Origin: a virus
DNA length: 64,000 bases
Direction: 5' to 3' (one strand)
Virus record (IMG/VR): IMGVR_UViG_3300043958_000214
Made by a program: the position numbers and the translations under genes. Of this stretch, positions 763 to 36,712 are shown piece after piece; the first letter of the stretch is position 1; each line of letters opens with the position of its first letter. The notes under the pieces were generated by a model that saw only the letters and a program-made list of their open reading frames with translations, did not search any database and was not told the origin of the DNA.

Positions 763-2391
763 CTACTCGACGGCTTGAGGGCGCCCGCGACGAACGCGCT
801 TGGCTACCGGGGCACGGTGGCACTCGGTGGATAAGGCGAGATTCTTGCGCATCGCGGTGGTCCACGTCGCGATCACCGTTCCCGCGTCCTCCGTCTTCTT
901 CTTCGGGTCCGCCTTCAGGGTGAAAGCACGCATGCTGCTCTTGCTCAATCGCTCGTTGACCAGCGCCGAAAGCACCGTGCGCACCCGCGACCTGAAGGCG
1001 TCCCTGGCCTCGATTGGCCCCATTCCCGGGAGGGAGAGGAGCCAGGAGTTGAACGCGTCGCCAACCGCCGCGAGAGCGCGATCGTGATAGTCGGTCTTGC
1101 GTGAGGTCACCCCCATCCGCTTCGCTGGCCGGAAGCCGTCGCAGATGTCGAGGGCCTGCAGCAGTGAGTCCGTGGCTTCGAGGAGCTTCTTCCCAGCCTT
1201 GTAGGCGTTACGGATCTCGCCGAGGAGTAGTTCATCGTCAAGGACCGCCGACGGGATCGTGATCTTGTCTTTGACCGCTGTATCGAAGATTCCCATGCTT
1301 TCGCCGTACTGCTCACCGATGCGCACGAACGTGACGTCGTCGCAGACGCGGTCCGCCCACTCGATGATCGGAATGCTGACCTTGGAGATGCGAGGGAGGA
1401 CGGAGGGGAAGCCCTGCCATAGTGCGCTGGACACGGTGATGGCCTGCGCGCCCTTGTCGTCGATCGGCGCCATCGGATCGCAGGCGATGTCCCTTCGCGT
1501 CTCCTCAGGATGGGTGGCCATCGCCTTCTTGGGGGACGGAACGCAAGCGTTGTATGTGATGGAGGCCCCGATCACCCGCTCTTTCGCCTCGTCCCAATCC
1601 AGACGGATCGAGCGGCTCATGTGGGTGTAGGCGTCGATGATGCCCGTGAAGTGGGAAGACTTGAAGCCTCGCACGTCGAGGATGCTCACGGGGTCTTTCT
1701 CCCAGGAGGGGATGTCTTCGGGACCGGAGGGGATCCGGTAGATCTCGTCGGTGATCGGGATGAGGTTGGCGAGAAGCGTGTCAGCCAGCGTGTCCCGAGC
1801 GATGTAGAGGACGCTGGCGAAACCGCACCAACCCGCGCACCCGTAGATCTTGCTGCCCTTCACCTCAGGATTCCCCTCCTTGGGGCCGCCTTTGGATCCC
1901 CCGGTGTCCCAGTGCTGGGTGACAAGCATCCACCGCGCCGCGTCCGCGGGGTCCATGGAGTCATCCGAGGCTCGCAGTGAGGGGTGGAAGACGAGTCCCG
2001 AGCGCTGAGTGCGGTACACCGGTTTGAGTTTGGAGAGCGGACTGGGGTTAAGGCCTTCCATGCCCGGTGTCTGCAGGAAGGGCTTGTCCCCGATCAGCCA
2101 GAAGTCATCGGCGCGCTCACGCAGGTAGGCGATGGCAGCACGGGAGGCCTTCTCCCACGTCAGTTCCCTCCACTGCGCTTCGCTGCGGGGACCCGAGAGT
2201 GCGCGGTAGAGGATCGCCTCCAGCATTCTCAGCACGCTGGCGTTTTGGAGGGGAGATTCCATAGCGAGATCTGAGATGCGTGGGGCGTCGCGGAACACGT
2301 CGATCAACGTGGCATCACGAGGCTGGGTACCGCCATCGGCGACGGTGATCCACGGTAGGTCGGTGGCGAGGTTGTACGCCCTGTCTATCAT
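763..2391 (-). CDS. cse1: Type I-E Cse1/CasA (Cas8e)
   Basis: YNLATDLPWI start, FWLIGDKPFLQ, AARWMLVTQHWDTGGSKGG, TLADTLLANL, SRSIRL; lies between cas3 and cse2. Confidence 0.9.
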   Translation of the reverse strand: MIDRAYNLATDLPWITVADGGTQPRDATLIDVFRDAPRISDLAMESPLQNASVLRMLEAILYRALSGPRSEAQWRELTWEKASRAAIAYLRERADDFWLIGDKPFLQTPGMEGLNPSPLSKLKPVYRTQRSGLVFHPSLRASDDSMDPADAARWMLVTQHWDTGGSKGGPKEGNPEVKGSKIYGCAGWCGFASVLYIARDTLADTLLANLIPITDEIYRIPSGPEDIPSWEKDPVSILDVRGFKSSHFTGIIDAYTHMSRSIRLDWDEAKERVIGASITYNACVPSPKKAMATHPEETRRDIACDPMAPIDDKGAQAITVSSALWQGFPSVLPRISKVSIPIIEWADRVCDDVTFVRIGEQYGESMGIFDTAVKDKITIPSAVLDDELLLGEIRNAYKAGKKLLEATDSLLQALDICDGFRPAKRMGVTSRKTDYHDRALAAVGDAFNSWLLSLPGMGPIEARDAFRSRVRTVLSALVNERLSKSSMRAFTLKADPKKKTEDAGTVIATWTTAMRKNLALSTECHRAPVAKRVRRGRPQAVE

Positions 2392-2422
2392 CAGTTCCCT
2401 CTCAGCTGGGTAAGTGGTCGCG

Positions 2423-5275: not shown

Positions 5276-5279
5276 GCCC

Positions 5280-5289
5280 TGTGTGTGCC
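5280..5289 (-). promoter_or_regulatory. Class-B motif (cas3)
   Basis: GGCACACACA-GGGC-ATG. Confidence 0.65.
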
Positions 5290-5316
5290 GCGAAAAACCG
5301 ACGCAGCGCACAACGG

Positions 5317-5588
5317 GGGCTATCCCCACGCGGGTGGGGAACATCAGGAGCTTGTTGTCCCCCGTCTGTCTGAGGACGGACCATCCCCACGCTGGTGGGG
5401 AACATCGGGTGGGAGAAGAACTCCTCGGGCGGGGCCTGGGACCATCCCCACGCGGGTGGGAAACTAGACGCTGCCGGAGGCGGTCAAGGCTGGTGGGCGG
5501 ACCATCCCCACGCGGGTGGGGAACATGCCGTTGTAGGCCGTGACGACGGGGGCGTCGTTGGATCATCCCCGCATGCGGCGGGGAACGA
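5317..5588 (-). CRISPR. Type I-E mini-array, 5 repeats / 4 spacers
   Basis: 28-nt repeat ATGTTCCCCACCCGCGTGGGGATGGTCC (minus) at 5317, 5378, 5439, 5499; divergent 29-nt copy at 5560; spacers 33, 33, 32, 33 nt; palindromic CCCC..GGGG stem. Confidence 0.95.
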
Positions 5589-6016: not shown

Positions 6017-7036
6017 CTAGAGACTGTTGATGGGTGTGGCACCCGCGGTCGGGTCGGTGACGAGGCTGTATCCGCGGTCGTCGGCGTGAATGAGCGCCCG
6101 CATGAGGAGGTCCACGTCGCTGGCGTAGAGGCCCGAGTTTGGTAGGGCGTTGAGTTCGACGACGATGGTCTTGCCGGTGTCGGCGTGGGTGGCGAGGTCG
6201 AGGACGAACGTGCCCATCCCGTCGCAGACGCGCTGGGCGAACAGTCGGTAGTCCTGGGCGAGGTCTGGGCGGTCCTCGACAGGGCTGTCAGGGTCGTTGC
6301 GCCTTCGGCGCGTGCGCATGTCGAAGGCGCCCCGGGCGGGGTCGTGGTCGAGGGGCGTGTACTCCTCGATGCAGCCGGCGCCCGTGACGGGGACACCGTC
6401 GACGACGAACAGCCGGTACTCGTGGGTCATGGGGATCCACTCCTGGGCCAAGAGCGCCTTCTCGGCCCCATCAAGGCGGACGACCGCCCAGTCGAGGGCG
6501 TCCCAGATCCGCTGGGACATGACGTCGGGGTCAGGGTCGAGGTCGAGGAACCAGATGCCACCCTTGGACTGGGCGGCCTTCAGGACTCCCCTCTCCACGC
6601 CCTGTTCGGCGAGGTATGCGAGCCAGTGGGCGGCGCTGTCCGGGCGCTGCCTCTCAGTGTCGAAGGTGACGCGCTGGTAGCGGCGCCCGCCGTAGCGCTT
6701 GAGGAGCGGGTGCATGAGGAACCGATCGCTTGCGTCCATGCCCTCTTCGTACATCGGGACGGGCCCGAGCCGATGCCGGAGCGTGTCCGCATCCCACGGG
6801 CCGAGCGAGACCTGCAGGTCTCCCCCGCTGGCCCGCCACGCGGCCGCCATCCGGCAGATGTCCTCCCAGCAGTACTCGATGTCGGCGCGCGGGTCCGGGT
6901 TCTGCCAACCATCCCACGCGGGGTCGGCCGCCCGGGCGTCCGCGAGCGCGCGTTCCGCTCGGGCACGTTTGTCGTGGTCCCAGGTGGTGGGGATGCCGGG
7001 GTAGGCGCGGATGCCGCCGGAGTAGAGGGTGGTCAT
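6017..7036 (-). CDS. ATP-grasp protein, R2K/DUF4343-like
   Basis: EWIPMTHEYRLFVVDG, FVLDL, VVELNALPNSGLY. Confidence 0.7.
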   Translation of the reverse strand: MTTLYSGGIRAYPGIPTTWDHDKRARAERALADARAADPAWDGWQNPDPRADIEYCWEDICRMAAAWRASGGDLQVSLGPWDADTLRHRLGPVPMYEEGMDASDRFLMHPLLKRYGGRRYQRVTFDTERQRPDSAAHWLAYLAEQGVERGVLKAAQSKGGIWFLDLDPDPDVMSQRIWDALDWAVVRLDGAEKALLAQEWIPMTHEYRLFVVDGVPVTGAGCIEEYTPLDHDPARGAFDMRTRRRRNDPDSPVEDRPDLAQDYRLFAQRVCDGMGTFVLDLATHADTGKTIVVELNALPNSGLYASDVDLLMRALIHADDRGYSLVTDPTAGATPINSL

Positions 7037-7516: not shown

Positions 7517-8155
7517 TTAGGCGAGTCCGAATCGGTTCCAGGGTCCTTCGACTGCCGGGCTGGCTGCGCCGATTCCGTGCAGGCGGACAACTTCGGCGAC
7601 CGCGGCGTCGAGGCGGATGGGGGTGAGATCGTTGACGTCGAGGCCGACGTTGAGCTGCTGGTAGCCCTCCCGGGTCCGCCACGCCTCATGGACGTGACCG
7701 CACAGGACAGGCAGGTGCCCATTGAGCGGTCGGCGGTCTGGGTAGCGGTCGGTGTCCTTGTGGTCGCCTTTGACGGGCATGTGCGACAAGACGATGCGGT
7801 GACCGTCGATCTCCAGCTCGACGGAACCGGACGTGTAGACCTGGTCGAATCCGGCCGCGTAGAACTCGGGGAGGGCTTTCATAGCCCCGCGGATGTTCTT
7901 CGCGGTGGTGTGGCGGTGCCAGCACTTGTCGTGGTTGCCGGCGATGAGGATCTTGCGTCCGTTGAGTCGGCTGGCCTGCTTCAGTCCGTCGCTCATGGCG
8001 ACGTCACCCAGGTGGTAGACGATGTCGTTCGGGGCGACGGCGGCGTTCCAGTTCGCGACGATGGCGTCGTCGTGCTGCTGGACGGTGTCGAAGCCGCGCA
8101 GGCCGGCGACGAGGCGGTGACCGAAGTGAGTGTCGGACGTGACCCAGGTTCTCAT
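7517..8155 (-). CDS. Calcineurin-like metallophosphoesterase
   Basis: SDTHFGH, GDV, GNHD, SH, GHVH motifs. Confidence 0.9.
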   Translation of the reverse strand: MRTWVTSDTHFGHRLVAGLRGFDTVQQHDDAIVANWNAAVAPNDIVYHLGDVAMSDGLKQASRLNGRKILIAGNHDKCWHRHTTAKNIRGAMKALPEFYAAGFDQVYTSGSVELEIDGHRIVLSHMPVKGDHKDTDRYPDRRPLNGHLPVLCGHVHEAWRTREGYQQLNVGLDVNDLTPIRLDAAVAEVVRLHGIGAASPAVEGPWNRFGLA

Positions 8156-8161
8156 GCCCCT

Positions 8162-8172
8162 GTTGTGGGGCA
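8162..8172 (-). promoter_or_regulatory. Class-A motif core
   Basis: GCATG-N11-TGCCCCACAAC-N6-ATG. Confidence 0.8.
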
Positions 8173-8261
8173 TGAGGCAGGTTCATGCTCGCTCATGAGG
8201 GGGACGGCGCTCGTCCACGTACCGGCGTGTGTTCGCGAGGCAGCAGGGTGCGTGGCGGCGA

Positions 8262-25628: not shown

Positions 25629-26099
25629 CTATCGTGAATCGACAACCGCACGTCTGATCGTGGCGATCTGCCGGTCGGTGAGGCCATAGTGGTCACGGGG
25701 GGTGACCAGAATGGCACGTTCGCCGAGACGGCGTCTAATAGAAGCCCCAACCGTGCGATCGTCATCAACGACGACCACCGTGCCGAATGCGTCGTTCGCC
25801 GCAGCCATGATGGCGTCCGTCTTCGAGGCCGCGTGGCCTATCAGCAGGTGAGGGAAGTCGGGGATCGCACCGCGAGTGTCGGTGGCGAAAGCCTGCGTGA
25901 TGTGGCCCCAGGACGAGGCCCACACAGGTGTCGCCGGAGATGCGGCTAACCATTGGAGAAAGTCGAGGACCTCGCGACGGATGTGAAGGTCAAACCCACC
26001 CAGCCGGAATGGGGTCCACTCTGCTCCGGCAGGCTCGCAGGGCTCGTAGGGACTGATGACACCATCGAAGTCGAGGGTGACGAGGACGCTCATCTGCAC
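25629..26099 (-). CDS. HAD-family phosphatase (HAD_SAK-like)
   Basis: LDFDGV, WASSW, VVDDD. Confidence 0.75.
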   Translation of the reverse strand: MQMSVLVTLDFDGVISPYEPCEPAGAEWTPFRLGGFDLHIRREVLDFLQWLAASPATPVWASSWGHITQAFATDTRGAIPDFPHLLIGHAASKTDAIMAAANDAFGTVVVVDDDRTVGASIRRRLGERAILVTPRDHYGLTDRQIATIRRAVVDSR

Positions 26100-26788
26100 C
26101 CTTCACTTGCCAGCTCGACACGCTCGAAGCAACCGCCGTCATCTCGTCGCATTGGTGCTGACCGAACGCGTTGTTCTGTGCTCCGCGGCTGACGCACGTG
26201 TGAGCCGTACCGCGTGGTGCGCGGGGACCACCACCAGCAGGTCGCCGTCACGTCCTCTGGGCGGATCTCCCACAGGCAAGCCTGGACGTCGGGGCAGTCC
26301 GGCGCGATGGTGAACGCATGCTGCCACGATGCCTCGATCTCTGTCTGCGTCCACACCCTGTCCCAGACCCCCTCGTCTTCCCATTGGTCGCGAGGCACGC
26401 AGTACGTGCCGTTCAGCACGCTGTGCCACAGGCCAAAGTCGGAGAGAAGGACGCGGGCAGGGTCCACATCCAGTACCAGCCAGAAAAGACCGCGCGCCTC
26501 GCTGTTGGGCCAGGACGTGCGTCCACCGAGATGAAAATCCAGGGGGACCATGTTCCAAGAAAACCGGGGTGTCGGACTGTCGCGACCAGACATGCGGGCC
26601 CACGCCCAAACGGGCCAGAGAGCACCGTTAGGCCCGGGCCCGAGGACGGCGGCCATCCGCTGGGCGATCCAGTCGTACGCGCCAGCAAAGTCTCCTCCCC
26701 ACTCGGACCTGGCCGGGTCGCACCGATACGCCTTGCCTCCACGCAGAGAATTGACGACCTCACGGGGTTGCATGGTCCACAGACGCAA
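26090..26788 (-). CDS. DUF3841-like protein
   Basis: LWTMQP, AYDWI, PVWAW, VLLSDFGLWHSVLNG, QACLWEI. Confidence 0.7.
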   Translation of the reverse strand: MRLWTMQPREVVNSLRGGKAYRCDPARSEWGGDFAGAYDWIAQRMAAVLGPGPNGALWPVWAWARMSGRDSPTPRFSWNMVPLDFHLGGRTSWPNSEARGLFWLVLDVDPARVLLSDFGLWHSVLNGTYCVPRDQWEDEGVWDRVWTQTEIEASWQHAFTIAPDCPDVQACLWEIRPEDVTATCWWWSPRTTRYGSHVRQPRSTEQRVRSAPMRRDDGGCFERVELASEGCR

Positions 26789-26944: not shown

Positions 26945-27018
26945 AGACGACGCCTCGTACCCCCTCCGAAGGGCAGGATCGTGGGTGGACGAACCCGCAG
27001 AGGACAGACAGGGTGAAG

Positions 27019-27090
27019 CGCCCCCGGCAGGATTCGAACCCGCGGCACGTGGGGTAGAGACCCACTGCTCTTCCGCTGAGCTACGGAGGC
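27019..27090 (-). tRNA. tRNA-Arg(TCT)
   Basis: Cloverleaf; anticodon arm GTGGG TCTCTAC CCCAC (C33). Confidence 0.8.
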
Positions 27091-27091
27091 A

Positions 27092-27182
27092 TGGCGTCCT
27101 CGGCGGGAGGGGCCACCTCATCCGCCTTTGGCGTCCTCGGCGGGAGGGGCCACCTCATCCGCCTTTGGCGTCCTCGGCGGGA
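27092..27182 (-). repeat. 37-nt tandem repeats containing the tRNA-Arg(CCT) 3' end
   Basis: 17-nt TGGCGTCCTCGGCGGGA (plus) at 27092, 27129, 27166 with identical linkers. Confidence 0.9.
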
Positions 27183-27241
27183 TTCGAACCCGCAACCTAC
27201 GGTGTAGGGGACCGACGCGCTATCCGTTGCGCCACGAGGAC
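27166..27241 (-). tRNA. tRNA-Arg(CCT)
   Basis: Loop CCCCTAC (C33); CCA encoded. Confidence 0.8.
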
Positions 27242-27245
27242 ATCG

Positions 27246-27317
27246 AGCCACCAGGTGGATTCGAACCACCGTTCCCCGATTACAGGTCGGGAGTTCTCTC
27301 CGCTGAACTATGGAGGC
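27246..27317 (-). tRNA. tRNA-Thr(TGT)
   Basis: CCCGA CCTGTAA TCGGG (C33). Confidence 0.8.
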
Positions 27318-27345
27318 GACGGCCGTGCCTCCCGGCGCAGCCTAG

Positions 27346-27418
27346 AGCCCGAGGTGGGGGTCGAACCCACCGCCTCCCGATTACGAAACGGGCGCTCAAC
27401 CAGGTGAGCTTCTCGGGC
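27346..27418 (-). tRNA. tRNA-Thr(CGT)
   Basis: Loop TTCGTAA. Confidence 0.85.
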
Positions 27419-27421
27419 ATG

Positions 27422-27480
27422 GAGGTGCTGGCCGGAAGCGTTCCACTCACCGACCACTCCTCTTCGAGGTGCTGGCCGGA
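27422..27480 (-). repeat. Duplicated tRNA-Cys 3' end (15 nt)
   Basis: GAGGTGCTGGCCGGA (plus) at 27422 and 27466. Confidence 0.8.
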
Positions 27481-27537
27481 GTCGAACCGGCCTGAGCGGC
27501 TTTGCAGGCCGCGACCTTGCCGCTCGGCCACAGCACC
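27467..27537 (-). tRNA. tRNA-Cys(GCA)
   Basis: GCGGC CTGCAAA GCCGC; U73. Confidence 0.9.
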
Positions 27538-27538
27538 A

Positions 27539-27616
27539 TGGGGAGACTGACCGGATTTGAACCGGCGACGACCCGGGCCACAACCGGGCGTTCTACCAGA
27601 CTGAACTACAGCCTCC
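27539..27616 (-). tRNA. tRNA-His(GTG)
   Basis: G-1:C73, loop TTGTGGC, CCA encoded. Confidence 0.92.
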
Positions 27617-27618
27617 AG

Positions 27619-27690
27619 TGCTTCCGGGTGGAATCGGACCACCGCGCTCCGGGCTTCAACCGGATGCTCTACCAACTGAGCTACAGAAGC
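27619..27690 (-). tRNA. tRNA-Phe(GAA)
   Basis: TCCGG TTGAAGC CCGGA. Confidence 0.88.
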
Positions 27691-27721
27691 AATGCGGGAC
27701 GACGCCCCGCAGGCGCGACCG

Positions 27722-28054
27722 TCACGGGCGGTCGAAAGCGTAGGGCCGACCCGGCGCCGGGTTCAGCTTGTCCCACCCCTCATGGTCCGGGTGGGCGGCC
27801 CAGAACTCGCTCGTGTGCGCGTGAGAGCGGGCGGGATCCAACAGGCGCTCCATCCACGGGTATTGTCGGCACATCTCGTGGGCGCAGTCGTGACACACGA
27901 ACACCGTGGGAATGCCCTGATCGTTGTCGTCATGGAACATGCCGTAGCCGCCGCCGAACGTGATCGGCAGGGCGTTCTCAAGCTGAGTCGTGTCGGGGTC
28001 GTCGTCCTTCCACACCGGCTTGAGTTCCGTCCCGCAGTTGATACAGGTCGCCAT
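27722..28054 (-). CDS. Small putative zinc-binding protein inside the tRNA array
   Basis: CINC and CHDC pairs; RBS AAAGGGG. Confidence 0.7.
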   Translation of the reverse strand: MATCINCGTELKPVWKDDDPDTTQLENALPITFGGGYGMFHDDNDQGIPTVFVCHDCAHEMCRQYPWMERLLDPARSHAHTSEFWAAHPDHEGWDKLNPAPGRPYAFDRP

Positions 28055-28069
28055 CGTGACCCCCTTTCG

Positions 28070-28140
28070 CTCCGCCTCTAGGATTCGAACCTAGGTTCGG
28101 GGAACCAAAATCCCCTGTGCTGCCCTTACACCAAGGCGGA
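28070..28140 (-). tRNA. tRNA-Gln(TTG)
   Basis: GGGGA TTTTGGT TCCCC. Confidence 0.9.
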
Positions 28141-28212
28141 ATTGACTCGGCGTCTTCACGCCGTCGTCGGGATTTCTCCAAAACTTCGGCTTCGATGCCG
28201 CTGGCATCTCAG

Positions 28213-28285
28213 TCGGGATGGCGGGTCTCGAACCCACGACCTTCCGCTCCCAAAGCGGACGCGCTACCTACTGCGCCACATCCCG
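28213..28285 (-). tRNA. tRNA-Pro(TGG)
   Basis: TCCGC TTTGGGA GCGGA. Confidence 0.9.
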
Positions 28286-28289
28286 AAAG

Positions 28290-28362
28290 TGCGCGCGGCG
28301 GGGCTCGAACCCGCAGCCTCCGGCTCCGGAGGCCGGCGCTCTTTCCGTTGAGCTACGCGCGC
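28290..28362 (-). tRNA. tRNA-Arg(CCG)
   Basis: CCGGC CTCCGGA GCCGG. Confidence 0.9.
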
Positions 28363-28363
28363 A

Positions 28364-28441
28364 TGGTTGCGGCGGTTGGACTCGAACCAACGACCCCTCC
28401 GTTATGAGCAGAGCGCTGCTAACCGACTGAGCTACGCCGCA
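28364..28441 (-). tRNA. tRNA with CAT anticodon (elongator Met or Ile2)
   Basis: CTCTG CTCATAA CGGAG; CCA encoded; lacks initiator GGG/CCC. Confidence 0.85.
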
Positions 28442-28464
28442 ATCAAGGCTCCGCGAGGAGCCAG

Positions 28465-28538
28465 TGGTGACGCCTGGGATCGAACCAGGGATCTCCGCCT
28501 TATCAGAGCGGTGCCTTCACCAGCTTGGCCACGTCACC
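28465..28538 (-). tRNA. tRNA-Ile(GAT)
   Basis: CCGCT CTGATAA GGCGG. Confidence 0.9.
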
Positions 28539-28539
28539 G

Positions 28540-28612
28540 TCGGGATGGCGGGGCTCGAACCCACGACCTCGCGGCCCCCAGCCGCGCGCGCTTCCTACTG
28601 CGCCACATCCCG
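28540..28612 (-). tRNA. tRNA-Pro(GGG)
   Basis: CGCGG CTGGGGG CCGCG. Confidence 0.88.
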
Positions 28613-28712
28613 GTTGCACGGCGCTGATCGGGCGCTGACGGCCTGTGCCAAGCCGGAGGTTTCGCAAGACGCCGTACGCGCGTTCGCGGACAGTTGCGGG
28701 CCGACGACCCAG

Positions 28713-28783
28713 AGCGAGTGGCGGGAATCGAACCCGCATCGGGTGCTTGGAAGGCACTCGTCCTGCCATTGGACGACACTCGC
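28713..28783 (-). tRNA. tRNA-Gly(TCC)
   Basis: Loop CTTCCAA; U73. Confidence 0.88.
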
Positions 28784-28892
28784 ATCGGTGCGTTTCGCCT
28801 TGCGGCGCGGAGCACCAGGCCGGCCCACGTGTTTCGCTGGACCCCGAGGGCGGGGCTGGGATTCTTCCGCCGATCGCACGTACGCCTGCGCT

Positions 28893-29190
28893 CTCGGTTC
28901 GGTTCCAGCTACCGGGCTCCTTGATACCGGAGGACGCCACCATCGCTGTTTCGGCTTGACCCGTCATGGTCGCCCTGTCCTGCGGGTTCCAGCAGATTCG
29001 CTCCGCGAGAGCGTCCGCGTAGCGGGGTAAGCATCGGGACCTCGCGGGTCCCGCCCCGCGGCGTTGTTGTCCCTCAACGCCACTCCCATGACCCCGCGTC
29101 CGCGGGGTGAATGCCTCACCAGTGGTCGCGCAGGTTTCTGCGACGTCACCAGAAAACGGGACCCGGACGTCCATGGCCACCGAAGTCGAG
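28893..29190 (-). ncRNA. Candidate structured RNA with RNase P-like pairing topology
   Basis: Terminal pairing CTCG/CGAG, TTCGG/CCGAA, CCA/TGG; GGACGT/GCGTCC and CCGGG/CCCGG pseudoknot; no convincing ORF. Confidence 0.4.
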
Positions 29191-29205
29191 GACTGTTACT
29201 TCCAG

Positions 29206-29278
29206 TCGGAATAGCAGGGCTCGAACCTGCGACCTCGAGGACCCGAACCCCGCGCGCTACCAACTGCGCCATATTCCG
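29206..29278 (-). tRNA. tRNA-Pro(CGG)
   Basis: Loop TTCGGGT. Confidence 0.88.
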
Positions 29279-29282
29279 ATAG

Positions 29283-29354
29283 CTGCTCTGCCAGGATTCG
29301 AACCTAGCGCTCCCGATCCAGAGTCGGGCGGGTTACCGAATACCCCACAGAGCA
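29283..29354 (-). tRNA. tRNA-Gln(CTG)
   Basis: CCCGA CTCTGGA TCGGG. Confidence 0.88.
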
Positions 29355-29421
29355 ATGCGACCGTTGGTCCCAAAAGCTGGGAACGGACACATGAACAACG
29401 CACCGCGCGGAGTGCGCTTCG

Positions 29422-29504
29422 CGGAAAGCAGAGAACTCGAATCCCAGCGCTTGAGCGCCCAACCGACTTCCAATCGGTGCCCGAACCTCACGGGTTTACT
29501 TTCC
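29422..29504 (-). tRNA. tRNA-Ser(GGA)
   Basis: ACCGA TTGGAAG TCGGT; long variable arm. Confidence 0.85.
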
Positions 29505-29505
29505 A

Positions 29506-29583
29506 TGGCGACCTATGTCGGATTCGAACCGACGATCTCCGCCGTGACAGGGCGGCGTCCACTCCAAACTGGACCAATAGGCC
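29506..29583 (-). tRNA. tRNA-Asp(GTC)
   Basis: CCGCC CTGTCAC GGCGG; CCA encoded. Confidence 0.92.
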
Positions 29584-29611
29584 ATTACGCACCGGATGCT
29601 TCCGGTGCCGG

Positions 29612-29684
29612 CTCTCCGAGCAGGACTCGAACCTACGACACGGCGGTTAACGGCCGCCTGCTCTACCAGCTGAGCTACCGGAGA
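29612..29684 (-). tRNA. tRNA-Asn(GTT)
   Basis: GGCGG CCGTTAA CCGCC (C33). Confidence 0.85.
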
Positions 29685-29791
29685 ATGCGTTCTGGGGCCA
29701 GCGGCCTTTGCGACGGCGAACCGCCCCGACACGATGCCGATGGGGCGGTCTGTGACCGAGAGGCCTTACCGGCGTCACGTCCAGAACGTCG

Positions 29792-29864
29792 TACTCCCAG
29801 GGGGACTCGAACCCCCGCCCCCGGAGTGAAGATCCGGGATCCTGGACCGCTAGACGATGGGAGC
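29792..29864 (-). tRNA. tRNA-Glu(TTC)
   Basis: CCGGA TCTTCAC TCCGG (C33). Confidence 0.85.
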
Positions 29865-29883
29865 ATGGGCGCTCTCGCGCCAG

Positions 29884-29956
29884 AGCCCAGTGCGGGGTTC
29901 GAACCCGCGACCTCGCCCTTACCAAGGGCGTGCGCTACCGACTGCGCCAACTAGGC
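29884..29956 (-). tRNA. tRNA-Thr(GGT)
   Basis: CGCCC TTGGTAA GGGCG. Confidence 0.9.
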
Positions 29957-29960
29957 ATCG

Positions 29961-29997
29961 AGCGGATGGTCGGGTTCGAACCGACGATCTTCTCCTT
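29961..29997 (-). pseudogene. 3' half of a tRNA-Gly (probably GCC), broken at the anticodon loop
   Basis: AA GGAGA AGATC GTCGG TTCGAAC CCGAC CATCCGC T remains; IS right end abuts position 37. Confidence 0.75.
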
Positions 29998-30310
29998 TTG
30001 ACATCCTCTCGGCCCTGAGGGACCGAGATTCCTGTTGGCCGTGCGGTCGCCTTCTCAGACTGCGTGCAGGTCAGTGCAGGGGGTTGACGCTTCGCAGGGG
30101 TTGCCGGCCGGCACCTGGGTGCTGGCGGGTCTTACTGCTCCTCCACGTCCAAGGCCGTTGTCCCGGCCCGTCTCACGGTGGGTTTCTTCCAGTCCCAGGG
30201 TGAGGATGTTGGTGGCGGCGTTGATGTCCGCGTTGTCCTCATGCCCGCAGGCCACGCACCGGAAGACCACTTGGCTCTCGCGGCTCCCTTTGCGACGCGG
30301 CCACGCCCGG
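29998..30310 (-). mobile_element. tnpB: IS200/IS605-family remnant: tnpB 3' end plus right end
   Basis: FRCVACGHEDNADINAATNI zinc finger/RuvC-III; right end hairpin CTCGGTCCCTCAGGGCCGAG then GATGTCAA; left boundary approximate. Confidence 0.85.
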
Positions 30311-30341
30311 GCCGCAATCCGGGGCGTGACACCCGGACCAG

Positions 30342-30414
30342 AGCGAGCAGCGGGGATCGAACCCGCGACCTCTTCCGTGGGAGGGAAGCGCGCTACCAGC
30401 TGCGCCATGCTCGC
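30342..30414 (-). tRNA. tRNA-Gly(CCC)
   Basis: CTTCC CTCCCAC GGAAG. Confidence 0.9.
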
Positions 30415-30455
30415 ATGAGCGCCGATCCCAGTACTCGGACCTGCTTGTCGCCCAG

Positions 30456-30540
30456 TACCCGCTCCGGGGCTCGAACCCGGACGTCCTTGCGGACACCGAG
30501 GTTTGAGCTCGGCGCGTCTACCTGATTTCGCCACGCGGGC
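30456..30540 (-). tRNA. tRNA-Leu(CAA)
   Basis: CCGAG CTCAAAC CTCGG; long variable arm. Confidence 0.9.
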
Positions 30541-30699
30541 ATGTGGTGGAGCGCGCGGCGACTCGACCTCCGCGCCCCGGCGCGACTCTTGTCGCCCGGA
30601 TTTCTGGCCGGCCCTGGTGAATGCGCCCGGCACTGGTGAGCCATCAGCAGCTCGGTATCGGCACCACCCGATCCGCGGGCTGCGTCACTCGCCCCAAAG

Positions 30700-30772
30700 T
30701 GGACCGTACCGGGATCGAACCGGTGACCTCCTCGTTGCGAACGAGGCGCGCTACCTACTGCGCTAACAGCCC
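30700..30772 (-). tRNA. tRNA-Ala(CGC)
   Basis: G3:U70; loop TTCGCAA. Confidence 0.9.
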
Positions 30773-30861
30773 AATCGGGCACCCGTGCGCTGCCGTAGCC
30801 ACTCACGCGCGGGCAACCAGTCCGACTCGGGATCTCTCCCTCCCTCGCTGGTCTTGCCCGG

Positions 30862-30934
30862 TGGACCGTGCGGGATTCGGACCCGCGACCTCCGCCATGC
30901 CATGGCGGCGCGCTACCAACTGCGCCAACAGCCC
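30862..30934 (-). tRNA. tRNA-Ala(GGC)
   Basis: G3:U70; loop ATGGCAT. Confidence 0.88.
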
Positions 30935-31078
30935 ATTGAGACACCGTCGCCGAACCTCTGGCGGCACTGCGGCACAGGCCAAGGTTTGGCTATCGTCCTT
31001 GACCCGCCTACGGTGTCTTTCGGCCCCGCGACGGGCCGGGACGCTTCCGCGCCCCCGGACGGTCCGCTGCCCGTGCAG

Positions 31079-31151
31079 TTGGCGATCCCGGGCTCGAACC
31101 GGGGACCCTCTCCTCGTCGTGGAGATGCGCTACCGACTGCGCCAATCGCCA
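31079..31151 (-). tRNA. tRNA-Val(GAC)
   Basis: TCTCC ACGACGA GGAGA (C33, G37). Confidence 0.78.
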
Positions 31152-31333
31152 GTGCGGCCGAGGGCCTGCAGAACCCTCGACTTGATGTCTCGTCCGACGT
31201 CGCGGGCATCCTCGCGTCCCGGTATGTGTGCCGGGCTCGCCCGGCTACCATGTCGGCCGGGGCTCTCGTCGTGGTCGCGGAGGCGAAGTGCACGGCACTT
31301 CTCACCCCGCCGACACCCCTTCGGGTGCCGTCG

Positions 31334-31418
31334 CGGAAGGTGCGGGAGTCGAACTCGCACGGGGTCTCCCCCACACCGCTTTCAAGGCGGCTGCCGGCGC
31401 CAATCGGCTGGACCTTCC
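31334..31418 (-). tRNA. tRNA-Ser(TGA)
   Basis: Loop CTTGAAA; long variable arm. Confidence 0.88.
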
Positions 31419-31421
31419 AAA

Positions 31422-31516
31422 GTGCCGCTGGAGGGAATGGGATGCCCTCCATCTTCACTGCGTGCCGCTGGAGGGAATGGGATGCCCTCCATCTTCACTG
31501 CGTGCCGCTGGAGGGA
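31422..31516 (-). repeat. 40-nt tandem repeats containing the tRNA-Arg(ACG) 3' end
   Basis: GTGCCGCTGGAGGGA (plus) at 31422, 31462, 31502 with identical linkers. Confidence 0.9.
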
Positions 31517-31576
31517 GTCGAACCCCCGACCTCGACGTTCGTAGCGTCGCACTCTATCCTGCTGAGCTACAGCGGC
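31503..31576 (-). tRNA. tRNA-Arg(ACG)
   Basis: CGACG CTACGAA CGTCG. Confidence 0.9.
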
Positions 31577-31619
31577 ATTGCGTCCGGGGACGAGCGAGGA
31601 TCCCCGGACAGTAGTCTCG

Positions 31620-32500
31620 GCACGCCTTCCCGGAGTCGACCCGGGAGCGTCTCGCCTTCGCCAAAGGGCGGTCTCGCTGGCGCGCTACCCGTCCTGAATT
31701 CTTGGGCCGAGGACTACTTCGGCTTGCAGCGCCACTCGGCCTCCCGGCCGGCCTCGAATCGGCTGATGCCCTGCACGACATGAATGCCGCGCGCTTCGGG
31801 AAGTTGATGCGAGTGAGAGTATCCCGCATGATCTCGGTGTTCTTTCGCCGCCGTATGGATTAGCGACTTCTCCACGGTGTTCCCACCGTACCCACCACAC
31901 ACGGTCGGTTGCGCCGACCAGTCGTCGAGTCATCGACTACTCCACCGGTTTCGATTCGTCTTGGGATTGCAGGTCCCAGGATTGCTCTACCGCCGCATGA
32001 ACCACGAGGCTCCTTGCGAGAACCACGTAGCCTCCGTTGCCCGAAAGCCGAAGGATTAGTGCGCTATTGTCGATGACTGAGGAAGTCTTTCGCTATGAAA
32101 AAACCATTTCATGTGGTTTGAGGTACCGGGACGCGCTTCCTCTGAGGTTCCGGCTCCTTTTGAAAGTCAGAATGCCTCACGCCCCCATATGCGTTCGTTG
32201 TCGGCTACTAGCAATCTGTCTGTCGTCCACGATCCCGTCGGACCGTTTCCGGCATTCATGGGCCCCGCCCTCGGCTGACGACCTCGGACTCCTGACCCTC
32301 ACGAACGACGCACCGCGCTCACCTGACACTCCCGCGACACGCCACGCTAGCGTGTGGGCCCTCAGCAGTTTTGCCCTTGGGCCACGGGAGCGGCTCGCGC
32401 GGCGAGGGACCCCCACTTACGGATCCCTGCTCGCCCGGCGTGCGTGGATGTACCACCGAAGTGGCGGGCAGGTGTACCGGACCGTGCCCTTTCACCGGCT
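31620..32500 (-). ncRNA. Probable GOLLD-like large ncRNA (boundaries approximate)
   Basis: About 900 nt without a credible ORF inside a tRNA array; lower-GC core; GGTTCTCGCAAGGA..GTGGTT..GGTAGAG segment recalled as GOLLD-like. Confidence 0.6.
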
Positions 32501-32531
32501 CACGCCGGCTTATGCCCCCACGCGGGCATCG

Positions 32532-32603
32532 CACTCCCAGGGGGATTCGAACCCTCGTCGCCCGGCTGAGAACCGGGCGTCTTGACCACTGGACTATGGG
32601 AGC
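32532..32603 (-). tRNA. tRNA-Glu(CTC)
   Basis: CCCGG TTCTCAG CCGGG. Confidence 0.9.
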
Positions 32604-32608
32604 CTGCG

Positions 32609-32689
32609 TGCCGATCGAGGGACTTGAACCCTCACGCCCGAAGACACCAGCACCTCATGCTGGCGCGTCTGCCATTCCGCCAGATCGGC
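32609..32689 (-). tRNA. tRNA-Leu(GAG)
   Basis: CCAGC ATGAGGT GCTGG. Confidence 0.88.
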
Positions 32690-32720
32690 AATGCGGCGAT
32701 TCGGCGCGCCGCGCGCCTCG

Positions 32721-32802
32721 TACCGACTCCGGGGCTCGAACCCGGATGCCCGAAGGCACCGCCACCTGAAGGCGGCGCGTCTGCCAATTTCGCCAAGTCG
32801 GC
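32721..32802 (-). tRNA. tRNA-Leu(CAG)
   Basis: CCGCC TTCAGGT GGCGG. Confidence 0.9.
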
Positions 32803-32803
32803 A

Positions 32804-32875
32804 TGGTCGACGGTCTGGGAATCGAACCCAGCACGACCTCCGTGTAGGGGAGGCTTGCGTCCCAGCGTCCCGTCG
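32804..32875 (-). tRNA. tRNA-Val(TAC), atypical D-arm
   Basis: CCTCC CCTACAC GGAGG (C33); good T-arm; CCA encoded. Confidence 0.65.
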
Positions 32876-32924
32876 GATGGCGCGGAGGCCGTTGGAGGAG
32901 ATGGAGAGCCCCGACCTCCGCGCC

Positions 32925-32999
32925 TGGCATACCGACCGGGGTTCGAACCCGGATCTGCGGTGTTGGAGACCGCTGTTCTCACCGTTGAACTATCGGCAT
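32925..32999 (-). tRNA. tRNA-Trp(CCA)
   Basis: GCGGT CTCCAAC ACCGC; CCA encoded. Confidence 0.9.
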
Positions 33000-33026
33000 A
33001 GTGGGCACCGGCATCCCGGTGCTTTG

Positions 33027-33099
33027 TGCGCCCAGAGGGGTTCGAACCCTCGACCCGGAGCTTAAAAGGCAACTGCTCTACCAACTGAGCTATAGGCGC
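33027..33099 (-). tRNA. tRNA-Lys(TTT)
   Basis: Loop CTTTTAA; two mismatches in anticodon stem. Confidence 0.78.
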
Positions 33100-33116
33100 A
33101 AGAAACGTGAAGCCAG

Positions 33117-33190
33117 TACCCCGTCTGGGGATCGAACCCAGGACCCGACGCTTAAGAGGCGCCTGCTCTTACCGGCTGAGCTAACGAGGC
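33117..33190 (-). tRNA. tRNA-Lys(CTT)
   Basis: GGCGC CTCTTAA GCGTC. Confidence 0.9.
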
Positions 33191-33243
33191 ATGATGGAGA
33201 AGGAGAGGCGCGGCATTCGCCGCTCGCCCACCTGCTCACTGCG

Positions 33244-33315
33244 TAGCGCAGGCCGGATTCGGACCGGCATCTTCTGGCGTATGAGGCCAGTGTGTTCCCG
33301 TTACACCACCGCGCG
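33244..33315 (-). tRNA. tRNA with CAT anticodon (possibly initiator-like)
   Basis: CTGGC CTCATAC GCCAG; unpaired C1/U72 but no GGG/CCC stem. Confidence 0.78.
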
Positions 33316-33319
33316 TCAC

Positions 33320-33945
33320 GCCGGGCGCCGAGTCGCTGCGAGCGCTTTCGCTGCTCGAGTCTCGGCTGCGGGATAGCCCGCCACGTCCTGCCCCGGCGAC
33401 AGGAGGTTCCGGTATGCGTGTACTCGGCCGGACCCCGGTTTCCGTAGCCCGTCCGAGTACCGGGTGGGCGGCATGGCCCTCGGCGCGGGGCCCCGCGCCT
33501 TCGCTGCCCCGGCAGGCAGGACGACCTCCTCACTCATGTCACGCAAGCCGGACGAGGTCGGTTCCGGTCGCGCGGGCGGACGTTCCGCCGACCTCACCGC
33601 CGGCTTCCTGCCTGGCAATGAGGTGGAGTGTCCCGCGGTCCGTGCACGGCTCGCGGGGGTCCCGGATTCCGTTCGGCTCCGGTGGCCGGATCCCAAGGTT
33701 AGCGTCGCAGGTTGGTTGACGGGGAGGTTTGGCCTGGCCGTTCCCATGCACAGGGGTCCGCGTGGTGTCGTCACCGGACGTGTCCGCGCTTCCCCCTTCC
33801 TAGCCCCGATGACAGCCGGGGAGAGGGCGTTGAATGCACCCAGGGTATGACGGTCGCTGGGTGCCCCTCACCGCGCTCCGGGGCGGGATCAACCCGCCCT
33901 TGCGTCGCGCTCGGCTTCGCCGCGGGGCGAGAGGCCGAGGTCTCC
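33320..33945 (-). ncRNA. Candidate ~620-nt structured RNA
   Basis: No credible ORF; many stems (GTACTCGG/CCGAGTAC, GAGGTCGG/CCGACCTC, GGCGCGGGG/CCCCGCGCC). Confidence 0.4.
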
Positions 33946-33948
33946 ACG

Positions 33949-34029
33949 TGCCGGCTGAGGGGGTCGAACCCTCATGCCCGAAGGCGCTGGCTCCTAAGGC
34001 CAGTGCGTCTGCCATTTCGCCAAGCCGGC
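33949..34029 (-). tRNA. tRNA-Leu(TAG)
   Basis: CTGGC CTTAGGA GCCAG. Confidence 0.9.
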
Positions 34030-34156
34030 AGTTCCCGGGGATGAGGCGCGGCTGCCGGGCCAGCCTGAGGCGTGCGCCGGGGGCTACCGGGCGTCGTTTC
34101 CCACTCCGATTTGGGCGTCACCACAGGTGTGGGAGCGGCCTGGAGGCGGACGATCG

Positions 34157-34229
34157 TGGACCCACGGGGAATCGAACCCCGAACCCCCTGCTTGCAAAGC
34201 AGGTGCGCTACCGTTTGCGCTATGAGCCC
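34157..34229 (-). tRNA. tRNA-Ala(TGC)
   Basis: G3:U70; CCTGC TTTGCAA GCAGG. Confidence 0.9.
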
Positions 34230-34305
34230 AGCTTCCGGGTCCTCGGCATCGCGGGCGGTCGTCGCCGTGTGCATCCGCGACCCAGCGGCTTGAACGCTGG
34301 CCGGA

Positions 34306-34360
34306 CAGTGGAGCTGCGGGGAATGGAATACCCCTCGCTTCCAGTGGAGCTGCGGGGAAT
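34306..34360 (-). repeat. Duplicated tmRNA 3' end (19 nt)
   Basis: CAGTGGAGCTGCGGGGAAT (plus) at 34306 and 34342. Confidence 0.85.
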
Positions 34361-34691
34361 CGAACCCCGGTCCGAGATGGCAAGTCATTCAAGGATTTCA
34401 CGAGCGTAGGACGGCGAAGACTCCTGGGCGCGCCCGCGCCGTCCACGGCGCGCCCTCGTTTCCGATCATTGTCTCAACGCCGGGCCTGGTCGGTCGTCCC
34501 GTCGTCCAGTCGCACTACATGATGCCTGCCACCTGGGGGTGCGACCGCCCCGGTGCGGCACTCGTCACGCGGCGAGAATGAAGTTGTCGTTGGCAACTAT
34601 GGGTGCAGCGCCAGTTGTTGACGGGGGTGATGCTGCCTGCCCCGGCTCGACTTTCAATCATCGTTTCATCCCGTCGAAACCGATCAGCCCC
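34345..34691 (-). ncRNA. ssrA: tmRNA
   Basis: 5' GGGGCTGATCGGTTTCGAC; 3' T-arm and CAGCTCCA with G3:U70; tag ORF ANDNFILAA* at 34565-34594. Confidence 0.95.
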
Positions 34692-34720
34692 GATAGGGAT
34701 ACACCCTCAAGGTGCACCAG

Positions 34721-34803
34721 CGGAAGAAGGAGGTCTCGATCCCCAGCCCGATGGGCCAAGCCGCCTAGCAAACGGTTCCAGCCACCCGGCTGGTTCTTCT
34801 TCC
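34721..34803 (-). tRNA. tRNA-Ser(GCT)
   Basis: GGAAGAA/TTCTTCC acceptor; loop TTGCTAG; long variable arm. Confidence 0.75.
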
Positions 34804-34974
34804 ATGTGGGCGGGGACCGCTCGGCCCCCGCCCTAGTGTCGGCCGGCATGACACCGGCCGGTACCTCGGGATGGTGCCCGAGGCTGCTGCCCGCCATGTG
34901 GTGGCGGGCATGTTGTCTGTCCTCTGTGTAGTTCATCAAGATCATGTTGAGATCGGCTTGCGCCGAACCCTGCG

Positions 34975-35059
34975 CGGATCGAGAGGGAATCGAACCCCCG
35001 GGCCCTTTCAGACCGCCTGTATTCGAAGCAGGTCCCGGCTACCAACACCGGACCGATCC
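34975..35059 (-). tRNA. tRNA-Ser(CGA)
   Basis: Loop TTCGAAT; long variable arm. Confidence 0.82.
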
Positions 35060-35103
35060 ACTGACATCCGTCACCTATGCGTAGGCGGATGCCCTCGTAT
35101 GTA

Positions 35104-35114
35104 GTTGTGAGGCA
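35104..35114 (-). promoter_or_regulatory. Class-A motif core at head of tRNA array
   Basis: GCATG-N11-TGCCTCACAAC. Confidence 0.8.
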
Positions 35115-35143
35115 GTCGCGCGTGTCATGCACGGTCTTGCCGG

Positions 35144-35225
35144 TGGGAGATGAAGGACTCGAACCTCCGGTGTTTCCCCGTGCCCGATTTACAGTCGGGT
35201 GCCGTCGCCGCTGGGCCAATCTCCC
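35144..35225 (-). tRNA. tRNA-Tyr(GTA)
   Basis: CCCGA CTGTAAA TCGGG; long variable arm. Confidence 0.9.
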
Positions 35226-35429: not shown

Positions 35430-35876
35430 CTACCGCGCGAAGGTGCGTGATCGTCGGTCCGCGGTGTCGAGACCCTCCTGGAAGACTTCCCGCGCTGACT
35501 TCTTCCCGAGCTGCTTGCGTCTCTCCTTGGGATCGTCTGCTTCCGCGGGGAGGGGGCCAGGCTCCGGCTCGGCGTCCGGGACGGTTTTCGGGCCGAGGAT
35601 CCGCAAGACGGCACCGTCGAGGAAGGAGCAGAGGTCGGTGTCTGCCACGGAGGCTGTGTGGGCCACAGGGTCCTCCTCGGTAATGTCGTAGATGCCGCGG
35701 CGGTGCTCGATCTGCTGGAAGAAGCCGATGCCGTCCGCGGTTCCCTCGACCGTGGCACCGTGGACGTCGACACGCACTGCACTGGCGCGCCGTGTGAGGG
35801 CGGTGAGGAGCTGCTTGGCGTAGGCAGCGACGCAGCGGGTGGTCTGGTAGGGCGGGTTCGGGGCGTCGCTTGGCAT
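35430..35876 (-). CDS. Hypothetical protein
   Basis: 148-aa ORF coupled to the kinase gene. Confidence 0.65.
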   Translation of the reverse strand: MPSDAPNPPYQTTRCVAAYAKQLLTALTRRASAVRVDVHGATVEGTADGIGFFQQIEHRRGIYDITEEDPVAHTASVADTDLCSFLDGAVLRILGPKTVPDAEPEPGPLPAEADDPKERRKQLGKKSAREVFQEGLDTADRRSRTFAR

Positions 35877-36712
35877 CAGGACGCCTGCTTGGCAGGAACG
35901 TCATGCGACTTCTCCCCCTGGAGGTTGACGCTGCCGATCTTTGCCTTCAGCGCCGGGGCCAACCTGTTGGCCGCCTTGGGCGATTGCGTGCGCACCGCGA
36001 TCCTGCTCGCCGCGTCAGCGACGGCCTCCGCCTTCGTCCACAGGTCCTTGATCTCAGCGTCGTTGGCGATCACCATGTCGACTGGCAGGGTGTCGATGTG
36101 GGTCTCCGAAGCGTGGGAGGCGTCCCGGGACGTGTCGCGATCGGGGCGCGTGATCCGGATGAGGACGCCGCCTGCGCGCTTGATGGCGTCCGCCTCGTTG
36201 GGGAACCGAACGTCCGTGATGACGACGGGCCCGTTCACTGCGGCGGCACTCTTCAGGCCCCGGTTCACCCAGATGTCGTCTCCGTAATACTCGCGAATCG
36301 ATTCGGTGCCGAGACGCTGGAGGAGGCGGCGGACTTCCGGGAGGCGCTCCTTCGCGTAGTCCCATCCGACCTCGGGAATGACGTCGGTGAGTCGTTCTCC
36401 GACGACGGTGTACGGGTCGAGGGCGAGGAGGGCGTCGACGGACTGATCAGGATTCCCTCCTCCCACGAAACCAAGGTGCGCTTCGACGGCTTCACGGAAA
36501 CGGTCGAGAAGAAGGAGGTCCGGGTTCTCGGAGAACCGTACCGCGTTCTCGGAACGCAGTGGGATGACGACCGGGTTGATGGCGAGCAGGAGGTCGCGTA
36601 GGGGGTCGGCGAAAGCGATCCGTGTGTAGCCCCTGCGCTCGGTCAGCCGTGAGGCGAACGTGTCCTTGCCCGTCTGCTTGTGCCCCTCGATGCCAAGGAT
36701 GATGGATGCCAT
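35876..36712 (-). CDS. Deoxynucleoside monophosphate kinase
   Basis: GHKQTGKDT, FADPLR, RRLLQRLGTE, TDVRFPNE, HASE. Confidence 0.9.
   Translation of the reverse strand: MASIILGIEGHKQTGKDTFASRLTERRGYTRIAFADPLRDLLLAINPVVIPLRSENAVRFSENPDLLLLDRFREAVEAHLGFVGGGNPDQSVDALLALDPYTVVGERLTDVIPEVGWDYAKERLPEVRRLLQRLGTESIREYYGDDIWVNRGLKSAAAVNGPVVITDVRFPNEADAIKRAGGVLIRITRPDRDTSRDASHASETHIDTLPVDMVIANDAEIKDLWTKAEAVADAASRIAVRTQSPKAANRLAPALKAKIGSVNLQGEKSHDVPAKQAS

Follow-up and report, generated by a model that had tools for sequence, protein, structure and literature searches.

We analysed a 64,000-nucleotide stretch of IMG/VR virus record IMGVR_UViG_3300043958_000214 (the window), which originates from bioreactor sludge metagenomes, has a GC content of 66% and carries an 8.2-kb array of 41 transfer RNA (tRNA) genes covering all 20 amino acids on its minus strand (27018-35225). 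Uridine at position 33 (U33), the base just 5' of the anticodon, is almost universal in tRNAs. In seven of the 41 array genes it is replaced by cytidine (C33), always in register with a 7-nucleotide anticodon loop. Judged from sequence comparison, this feature is real, non-random and probably functional. Among the seven genes, convergence is shown solely by tRNA-Val(GAC), whose C33 recurs in unrelated arrays at about ten times the rate of other tRNAs.

Position 33 in the window and in other arrays

A preliminary description of this DNA had listed seven C33 loops between 27049 and 32850, six of them on fully paired 5-bp stems. All seven are present as written and lie within that span, but the array itself extends further on both sides. 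Six of the anticodon stems comprise five pairs, and that of tRNA-Arg(CCU) comprises four. Six of the seven genes look like normal working tRNAs. Sequencing error is unlikely since contigs of another run cover five of the seven C33 sites with 0 differences and six of the seven recur in sister arrays. A shifted register that would turn the two arginine loops into CUA suppressors with U33 allows no stem and was rejected.

Sister arrays A, B and C were located via flanking proteins. They are syntenic with the window array, anchored by a deoxynucleotide monophosphate (dNMP) kinase gene upstream (35876-36712, minus strand) and a DUF3841 gene downstream (26090-26773, minus strand), and their dNMP kinases are 62-64% identical. 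Arrays A and C are close to each other while B is separate. Further sister arrays were not found in genome, metagenome and viral contigs, and searches of actinobacterial genomes with the array's GOLLD RNA gave no match, so that the lineage rests on three independent arrays (window, A/C and B). Every sister array has seven C33 genes, in partly different tRNAs, bringing the number of isoacceptors with C33 in at least one of the three lineages to 11.

Four of the window's C33 genes, all on the minus strand like the rest of the array, have C33 in all three lineages: tRNA-Val(GAC) (31078-31151, C33 at 31119), tRNA-Asn(GUU) (29610-29684, C33 at 29652; genes 96-100% identical), tRNA-Thr(UGU) (27245-27317, C33 at 27285; B gene 69% identical) and tRNA-Arg(CCU) (27166-27241, C33 at 27209; B gene 79% identical), the last two on altered yet paired stems. 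In the Thr(UGU) and Asn(GUU) tRNAs, C33 is the sole loop difference from a host-type loop. Two further genes share C33 with A/C, namely tRNA-Arg(UCU) (27018-27090, C33 at 27059), in which A20 is present and which has U33 in B, and tRNA-Val(UAC) (32804-32875, C33 at 32847), which falls below the ARAGORN default and Rfam thresholds. In tRNA-Glu(UUC) (29791-29864, C33 at 29831), C33 is restricted to the window element and is the sole difference from the sister B gene, a recent change. C33 is additionally found only in A/C for Pro(CGG) and only in B for Ala(UGC), Leu(CAA) and Pro(GGG).

Across the lineage, polymorphism at position 33 is seen in 6 of 35 genes (17%) compared with 5 of 315 at other invariant sites (p=0.0002). 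It thus varies like a free loop base while the other invariant sites are kept, which argues against general decay. Among 165 genes of the window and sister arrays, none has a purine at 33 and none is changed at 37, 56 or 57. Identity to sister A is 98% for C33 genes, 94.5% for U33 genes and 68% for spacers. These comparisons show the C33 genes to be maintained as tRNAs in which position 33 behaves as a pyrimidine position.

Two kinds of background were considered. In the chromosomes of Cellulosimicrobium sp. Marseille-Q4280 and Cellulomonas sp. SG140, 85 of 86 tRNA calls have U33, the lone C33 exception being an odd Arg(UCG) call that we take as spurious. In 121 other mobile loci with at least 5 tRNAs each, C33 was found in 67 of 1823 genes (3.7%) and a purine at 33 in 6. 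The window's 7 of 41 exceeds this background (p=0.0007), although the background tRNAs are only partly independent and the many feature tests made here are uncorrected. Among 47 large arrays, two are as C33-rich as the window, and the plasmid array of Cellulosimicrobium sp. Marseille-Q4280 has three credible C33 genes. C33 is hence a low-level general feature of mobile arrays, with the window lineage near the top of the range. Neither anticodon GC strength (p=0.9, background tRNAs) nor codon rarity was linked to C33. ARAGORN penalises T-loop changes, and deviations at positions 54-58 are possibly understated.

tRNA-Val(GAC) stood out in a first sample of other arrays, with C33 in 5 of 13 genes, and for this reason an independent scan was run with a search pattern blind to positions 32 and 33. 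Here, 5 of 21 array Val(GAC) genes had C33 compared with 10 of 376 neighbours in the same arrays (p=0.0005). Pooled, C33 is found in 11 of 35 unrelated arrays for Val(GAC) and in 56 of 1782 other tRNAs. The loci concerned span 30-72% GC, and the A32-C33 pair of the window gene is seen again in mycobacteriophage ScoobyDoobyDoo and in the plasmid array of Cellulosimicrobium; the chromosome of that strain has U33. GC pressure cannot yield this pattern, which extends to AT-rich loci. C33 was found in 3 of 42 Val(UAC) genes of other arrays. As a side observation, weaker excesses were seen for Ile(GAU) (7/69), Glu(CUC) (4/30) and Leu(GAG) (3/28), and C33 was absent from Phe, Trp, Tyr and Lys(UUU) in viral and plasmid loci (0 of 51-61 each).

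Possible protection from anticodon RNases and competing explanations

The preliminary description had suggested nuclease evasion, C-to-U editing or altered decoding. Nuclease evasion is the leading idea, in a form narrower than first proposed. The element supplies a full back-up tRNA set, whose genes stay intact while the constraint at position 33 has relaxed from U to either pyrimidine. C33 would spread where it removes a uridine cut by uridine-specific anticodon RNases of the HEPN type (Cas13, retron HEPN effectors, PrrC-like), and C33 copies would survive host defence or toxin RNases that destroy the chromosomal U33 copies, allowing translation to continue. That C33 removes the uridine needed by such RNases, at little cost, is an explanation we favour tentatively, as somewhat short of probable.

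Several known enzymes are candidate selective agents. In anticodon loops, Cas13b6 cuts after uridine, and it removes U33 from tRNA-Val(GAC); the loop substitutions U33A and U33A/G34U lower cleavage (PMC13692257). The HEPN domain of Retron-Kva2 cuts U|N in anticodon loops, and the most abundant tRNA fragment it yields is a tRNA-Leu ending at U33 (10.64898/2026.07.14.738597), while Cas13a favours uridine-rich anticodons (PMC11042736). Compared with proxy hosts, loops differ from the host type in 22 of 40 array tRNAs, and all seven C33 tRNAs differ at position 33, the site cut by Cas13b6 and Retron-Kva2 HEPN, although the tRNAs of the true host may differ from those of the proxies. The window's Val(GAC) loop (A32-C33-GAC-G37-A38) is without any uridine. 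These HEPN RNases fit better than colicin E5, gamma-toxin, PARIS AriB or PrrC.

Phage tRNAs insensitive to nucleases offer a precedent, as those of mycobacteriophage C1 (PMC10264068) and of T5 facing AriB (PMC12409363) likewise have loop bases unlike the host type, and Thr(UGU) and Asn(GUU), both C33 here, are also AriB targets. The papers on these phages do not mention position 33. Nuclease-evading phage tRNAs with loops deviating from the host have been proposed to refill the tRNA pool (PMC10264068); refilling by the window array would be consistent with this proposal and with stress-induced arrays (PMC8421152). The cost of C33 is low, since it barely impairs the function of yeast tRNA-Leu(GAG) (PMC13492127). 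Together with eukaryotic initiator tRNA-Met (C33) and Candida tRNA-Ser (G33) (PMC5041475), this tRNA is functional without U33; these eukaryotic cases are single fixed exceptions, in contrast to the 11 isoacceptors of the window lineage. We found no paper on C33 enrichment in arrays and none joining phage tRNA and C33, with subscription journals mostly outside the scope of the search.

A number of observations weigh against protection. With U33C in the substrate, cleavage by colicin E5 stays at the wild-type level (PMC1635277), yeast gamma-toxin is not blocked by U33C (PMC2275089), AriB reads positions 36-41 with escape mapping to 39 and 41 (PMC12409363), and the tRNA variants at position 33 that were assayed with Cas13b6 are of the U33A type rather than U33C (PMC13692257). 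On the data for these four enzymes, U33C is not a change known to block a named nuclease. The colicin-like and PrrC-type nucleases of the original proposal fit poorly: besides the colicin E5 result, the PrrC target Lys(UUU) has U33 in every sister array and in 51 of 51 background genes. Six of the seven C33 tRNAs retain other loop uridines, and loops otherwise free of uridine show no enrichment of C33 (9/202 vs 51/1247). Outside the lineage, C33 stays at background level for Asn(GUU) (2/72), Thr(UGU) (1/62), Arg(CCU) (0/18), Arg(UCU) (1/44) and Glu(UUC) (1/62). Position 33 does not vary faster than ordinary unpaired bases, of which 19% are polymorphic. Further, Val(GAC) and Asn(GUU) sit in blocks with spacers often 91-98% identical, so that their conservation within the lineage may reflect shared ancestry and proves less. 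The case for protection is accordingly graded by tRNA. It is good for Val(GAC). For Thr(UGU), Arg(CCU) and Asn(GUU) it is plausible, and in the case of Glu(UUC), Arg(UCU) and Val(UAC) it is unproven.

Tolerated drift is the main rival and a real possibility. Here, C33 would be near-harmless in redundant accessory genes under weak selection and T-to-C changes would build up at 66% GC, with purines purged as loop-breaking. Drift may explain several of the other six C33 tRNAs but not Val(GAC), where a tenfold excess that extends to AT-rich loci is left unexplained. In its favour, the polymorphism at position 33 (17%) is close to that of other unpaired bases, seven isoacceptors switch among the three lineages, some between genes 95-99% identical, and Gly(GCC) was lost without replacement. 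U55 has likewise changed to C in fMet (33243-33315), Ala(GGC) (30860-30934, in all lineages) and Phe (27618-27690), and also in the Thr(UGU) gene of sister B. C33 share climbs with GC across 58 arrays (rho 0.52), yet this trend is non-monotonic (2.0, 3.5, 7.5 and 4.7%), and position 32, which is free to vary, has a share of C that does not change from one GC bin to the next. Arrays of four actinophages, with 16-40 tRNAs, have only 0-1 C33 genes each, unlike the window array, in which 17% of genes carry C33; in seven related plasmids the arrays contain 0-2 such genes each. Protection and drift are not mutually exclusive, as each may apply to different tRNAs.

Altered modification or decoding appears improbable. 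According to this explanation, C33 removes the recognition base of loop-modifying enzymes or blocks U33-A37 pairing in under-modified loops, thereby tuning wobble or freeing the tRNAs from host enzymes. TGT, for example, requires U33-G34-U35 for queuosine on tRNA-Asn. All seven C33 tRNAs have a pyrimidine at position 36 (post hoc p=0.008), the base that U33 contacts in the ribosome-bound loop (PMC5041475), and Arg(ACG) and both CAU genes (elongator-type or initiator) keep U33 in all lineages. However, the link to pyrimidine 36 fades in the background once Val(GAC) and Ile(GAU) are set aside (p=0.19), and C33 is not linked to A37 (p=0.54), to a U36-A37/t6A context (p=0.35) or to queuosine-type anticodons (4/254). 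The codons read by the C33 tRNAs include both common (AAC, GUC) and rare (GUA, AGA) ones in the element's genes.

C-to-U editing, in which a deaminase restores U33 post-transcriptionally and leaves the genes free to drift to C, is very improbable. A precedent for tRNA editing exists, as CDAT8 edits C8 in Methanopyrus tRNAs. Editing would account for changes to C only, for their clustering by array (overdispersion p=0.0003) and for U55, the second U-turn base, likewise changing to C. It finds no support in gene content: no deaminase motif is present in the 64-kb window, which is part of a contig of up to 192 kb, or in seven sister loci, and two small genes that are conserved within the array and ahead of it are unlike deaminases. 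C is moreover found in only 17% of genes (7/41) at 66% GC and not in most genes as for CDAT8-type editing, and unedited C33 works in yeast (PMC13492127).

Decay, with the C33 genes as pseudogenes of an eroding array, can be set aside: one gene has been disrupted next to the remnant of an insertion and background C33 genes slightly more often carry other deviations (15% vs 8%), but the window's C33 genes have neither lost stems and invariant bases nor diverged like spacers, and stems remain paired in diverged orthologues. The earlier argument for selection rather than decay thus stands in its second half, given the kept invariant sites and C-only changes. Selection itself is well supported just for Val(GAC) and weakly for Thr(UGU) and Arg(CCU), while elsewhere genes that are almost identical have C in one case and U in another.

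Returning to protection from RNases, a broader generalisation is conceivable but doubtful. U33 would be a shared weak point for uridine-specific defence RNases, from which mobile arrays repeatedly escape via U33C, with Val(GAC) as a convergent hot spot and the plasmid lineage extending the escape to a sixth of its tRNAs. If so, the set of C33 isoacceptors would record the RNases met by the element. The array itself belongs to a known kind; new here are the comparison of position-33 rates across sister arrays and the replicated Val(GAC) hot spot matched to U33-cutting RNases, and a near-invariant tRNA base is seen to be optional in bacterial accessory tRNAs. The natural one-base U33/C33 pair of Glu(UUC) in the window and sister B, combined with the convergent Val(GAC), offers a cheap and sharp way to ask why tRNA arrays are carried by plasmids and phages. 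If C33 protects, U33C would amount to a general counter-defence strategy and open a route to tRNAs that survive Cas13 collateral cleavage. If it does not, the result would bound the importance of the U-turn uridine in bacterial translation.

The array, its carrier and neighbouring features

With default settings ARAGORN called 38 tRNA genes and a transfer-messenger RNA (tmRNA), and a relaxed threshold added Val(UAC), Ser(GGA) and Ser(GCU). The tmRNA (34342-34691, minus strand; tag peptide ANDNFILAA) was found by ARAGORN and Rfam (118 bits), and a GOLLD RNA (RF02032; 31807-32185, minus strand) by Rfam with 180 bits against a cut-off of 150. Having 41 genes in 8.2 kb, an associated tmRNA and large structured RNA, and a mobile carrier, the array corresponds to a tRNA array unit or L-array (at least 20 tRNA genes at no less than 2 per kb). 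It matches known array units (PMC5966550; definition in PMC4758250) and the Anabaena trn operon L-array (PMC8421152) in density, single-strand layout and the presence of tmRNA and structured RNA. In the paper on the Anabaena operon, neither U33 nor C33 is mentioned.

Genes near the array encode an NAD-dependent DNA ligase, the dNMP kinase, an SNF2 helicase, a G5-domain protein and an AAA_10 ATPase, together with type I-E CRISPR genes (cas3 and cse1 at 763-5566, minus strand). The best plasmid matches of the SNF2 protein are Curtobacterium and Arthrobacter megaplasmids (34-38%), several of which bear arrays related to that of the window. The mobile character of the carrier is indicated by these matches and by the neighbouring ATPase, ligase and kinase genes; we infer a large actinobacterial plasmid or integrated element, which looks like a plasmid rather than a lytic phage. 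Other genes of the window, all on the minus strand, have a peptidyl-tRNA hydrolase (PTH2) domain (58454-59092), a HAD_SAK_2 RNA-repair-type phosphatase domain (25629-26099), a metallophosphoesterase domain (7517-8173) and an R2K ATP-grasp domain (6017-7036). Their annotation suggests functions in translation rescue and RNA repair. Within the array, an open reading frame of 110 amino acids with a cysteine motif (27722-28054, minus strand) is kept in the sisters and is similar to unnamed phage proteins.

The window's Val(UAC) gene is non-canonical beyond C33, with no U8/9 linker, a shrunken D-arm with a D-stem of 2-3 pairs and a purine mismatch at 7:66. The short D-arm is common to Val(UAC) of Arthrobacter phage Talia1610, Microbacterium phage Big4, a Curtobacterium plasmid and sister B, each of which has U33; besides the window, copies were located at L042:13595-13666, L043:13483-13556, L319:8997-9067, L320:8993-9063 and L007:4595-4664. 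These copies, from actinobacterial plasmids and the two phages, likewise lack the U8/9 linker and have a 3-pair D-stem, often together with the 7:66 purine mismatch. Compensatory changes affect 7 of the 20 pairs among five sequences; they fall in the acceptor, anticodon and T stems, and the short D-stem has none. We found no description of short-D-arm valine tRNAs in the literature. Two further U33 genes belong to the described class of tRNA-Ser with an 8/4 acceptor branch (PMC5389517) and were both missed by default ARAGORN. These are tRNA-Ser(GGA) (29421-29504, minus strand), with an 8-pair acceptor and a 4-pair T stem, and tRNA-Ser(GCU) (34720-34803, minus strand), with an 8/4 branch and, by eye, a long D-stem with a tetraloop.

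All sister arrays carry a tRNA-Sec-like RNA between Gly(CCC) and Gly(GCC) (L042:16346-16436, L043:15984-16074, L048:16229-16319), with an 8-pair acceptor, a bulge, a 5-pair T stem and an interrupted anticodon arm; in one register its loop reads ACU with C33. This RNA is absent from the window, where a TnpB C-terminal remnant (PF07282; 29957-30340, minus strand) occupies its place and that of the 5' half of tRNA-Gly(GCC), adjoining the surviving 3' half. Gly(GCC) is intact in the sisters.

The promoter scan gave nothing usable. Four spacers (29685-29790, 30541-30698, 30935-31077 and 31152-31332) are 91-98% identical to at least one sister array, and two of them fold better than shuffled sequences (z about -2.6). 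Structured RNAs or a recent exchange of these blocks may underlie the similarity. Finally, short tandem copies of gene 3' ends lie directly downstream of tRNA-Arg(CCU) (37 nucleotides, two copies, 27092-27165) and tRNA-Arg(ACG) (40 nucleotides, two copies, 31422-31501), and the tmRNA 3' end is likewise copied directly downstream with 36-nucleotide spacing (34308-34343). A glycine tRNA called by ARAGORN at 34274-34355 is a duplicate of the tmRNA 3' end and was rejected.

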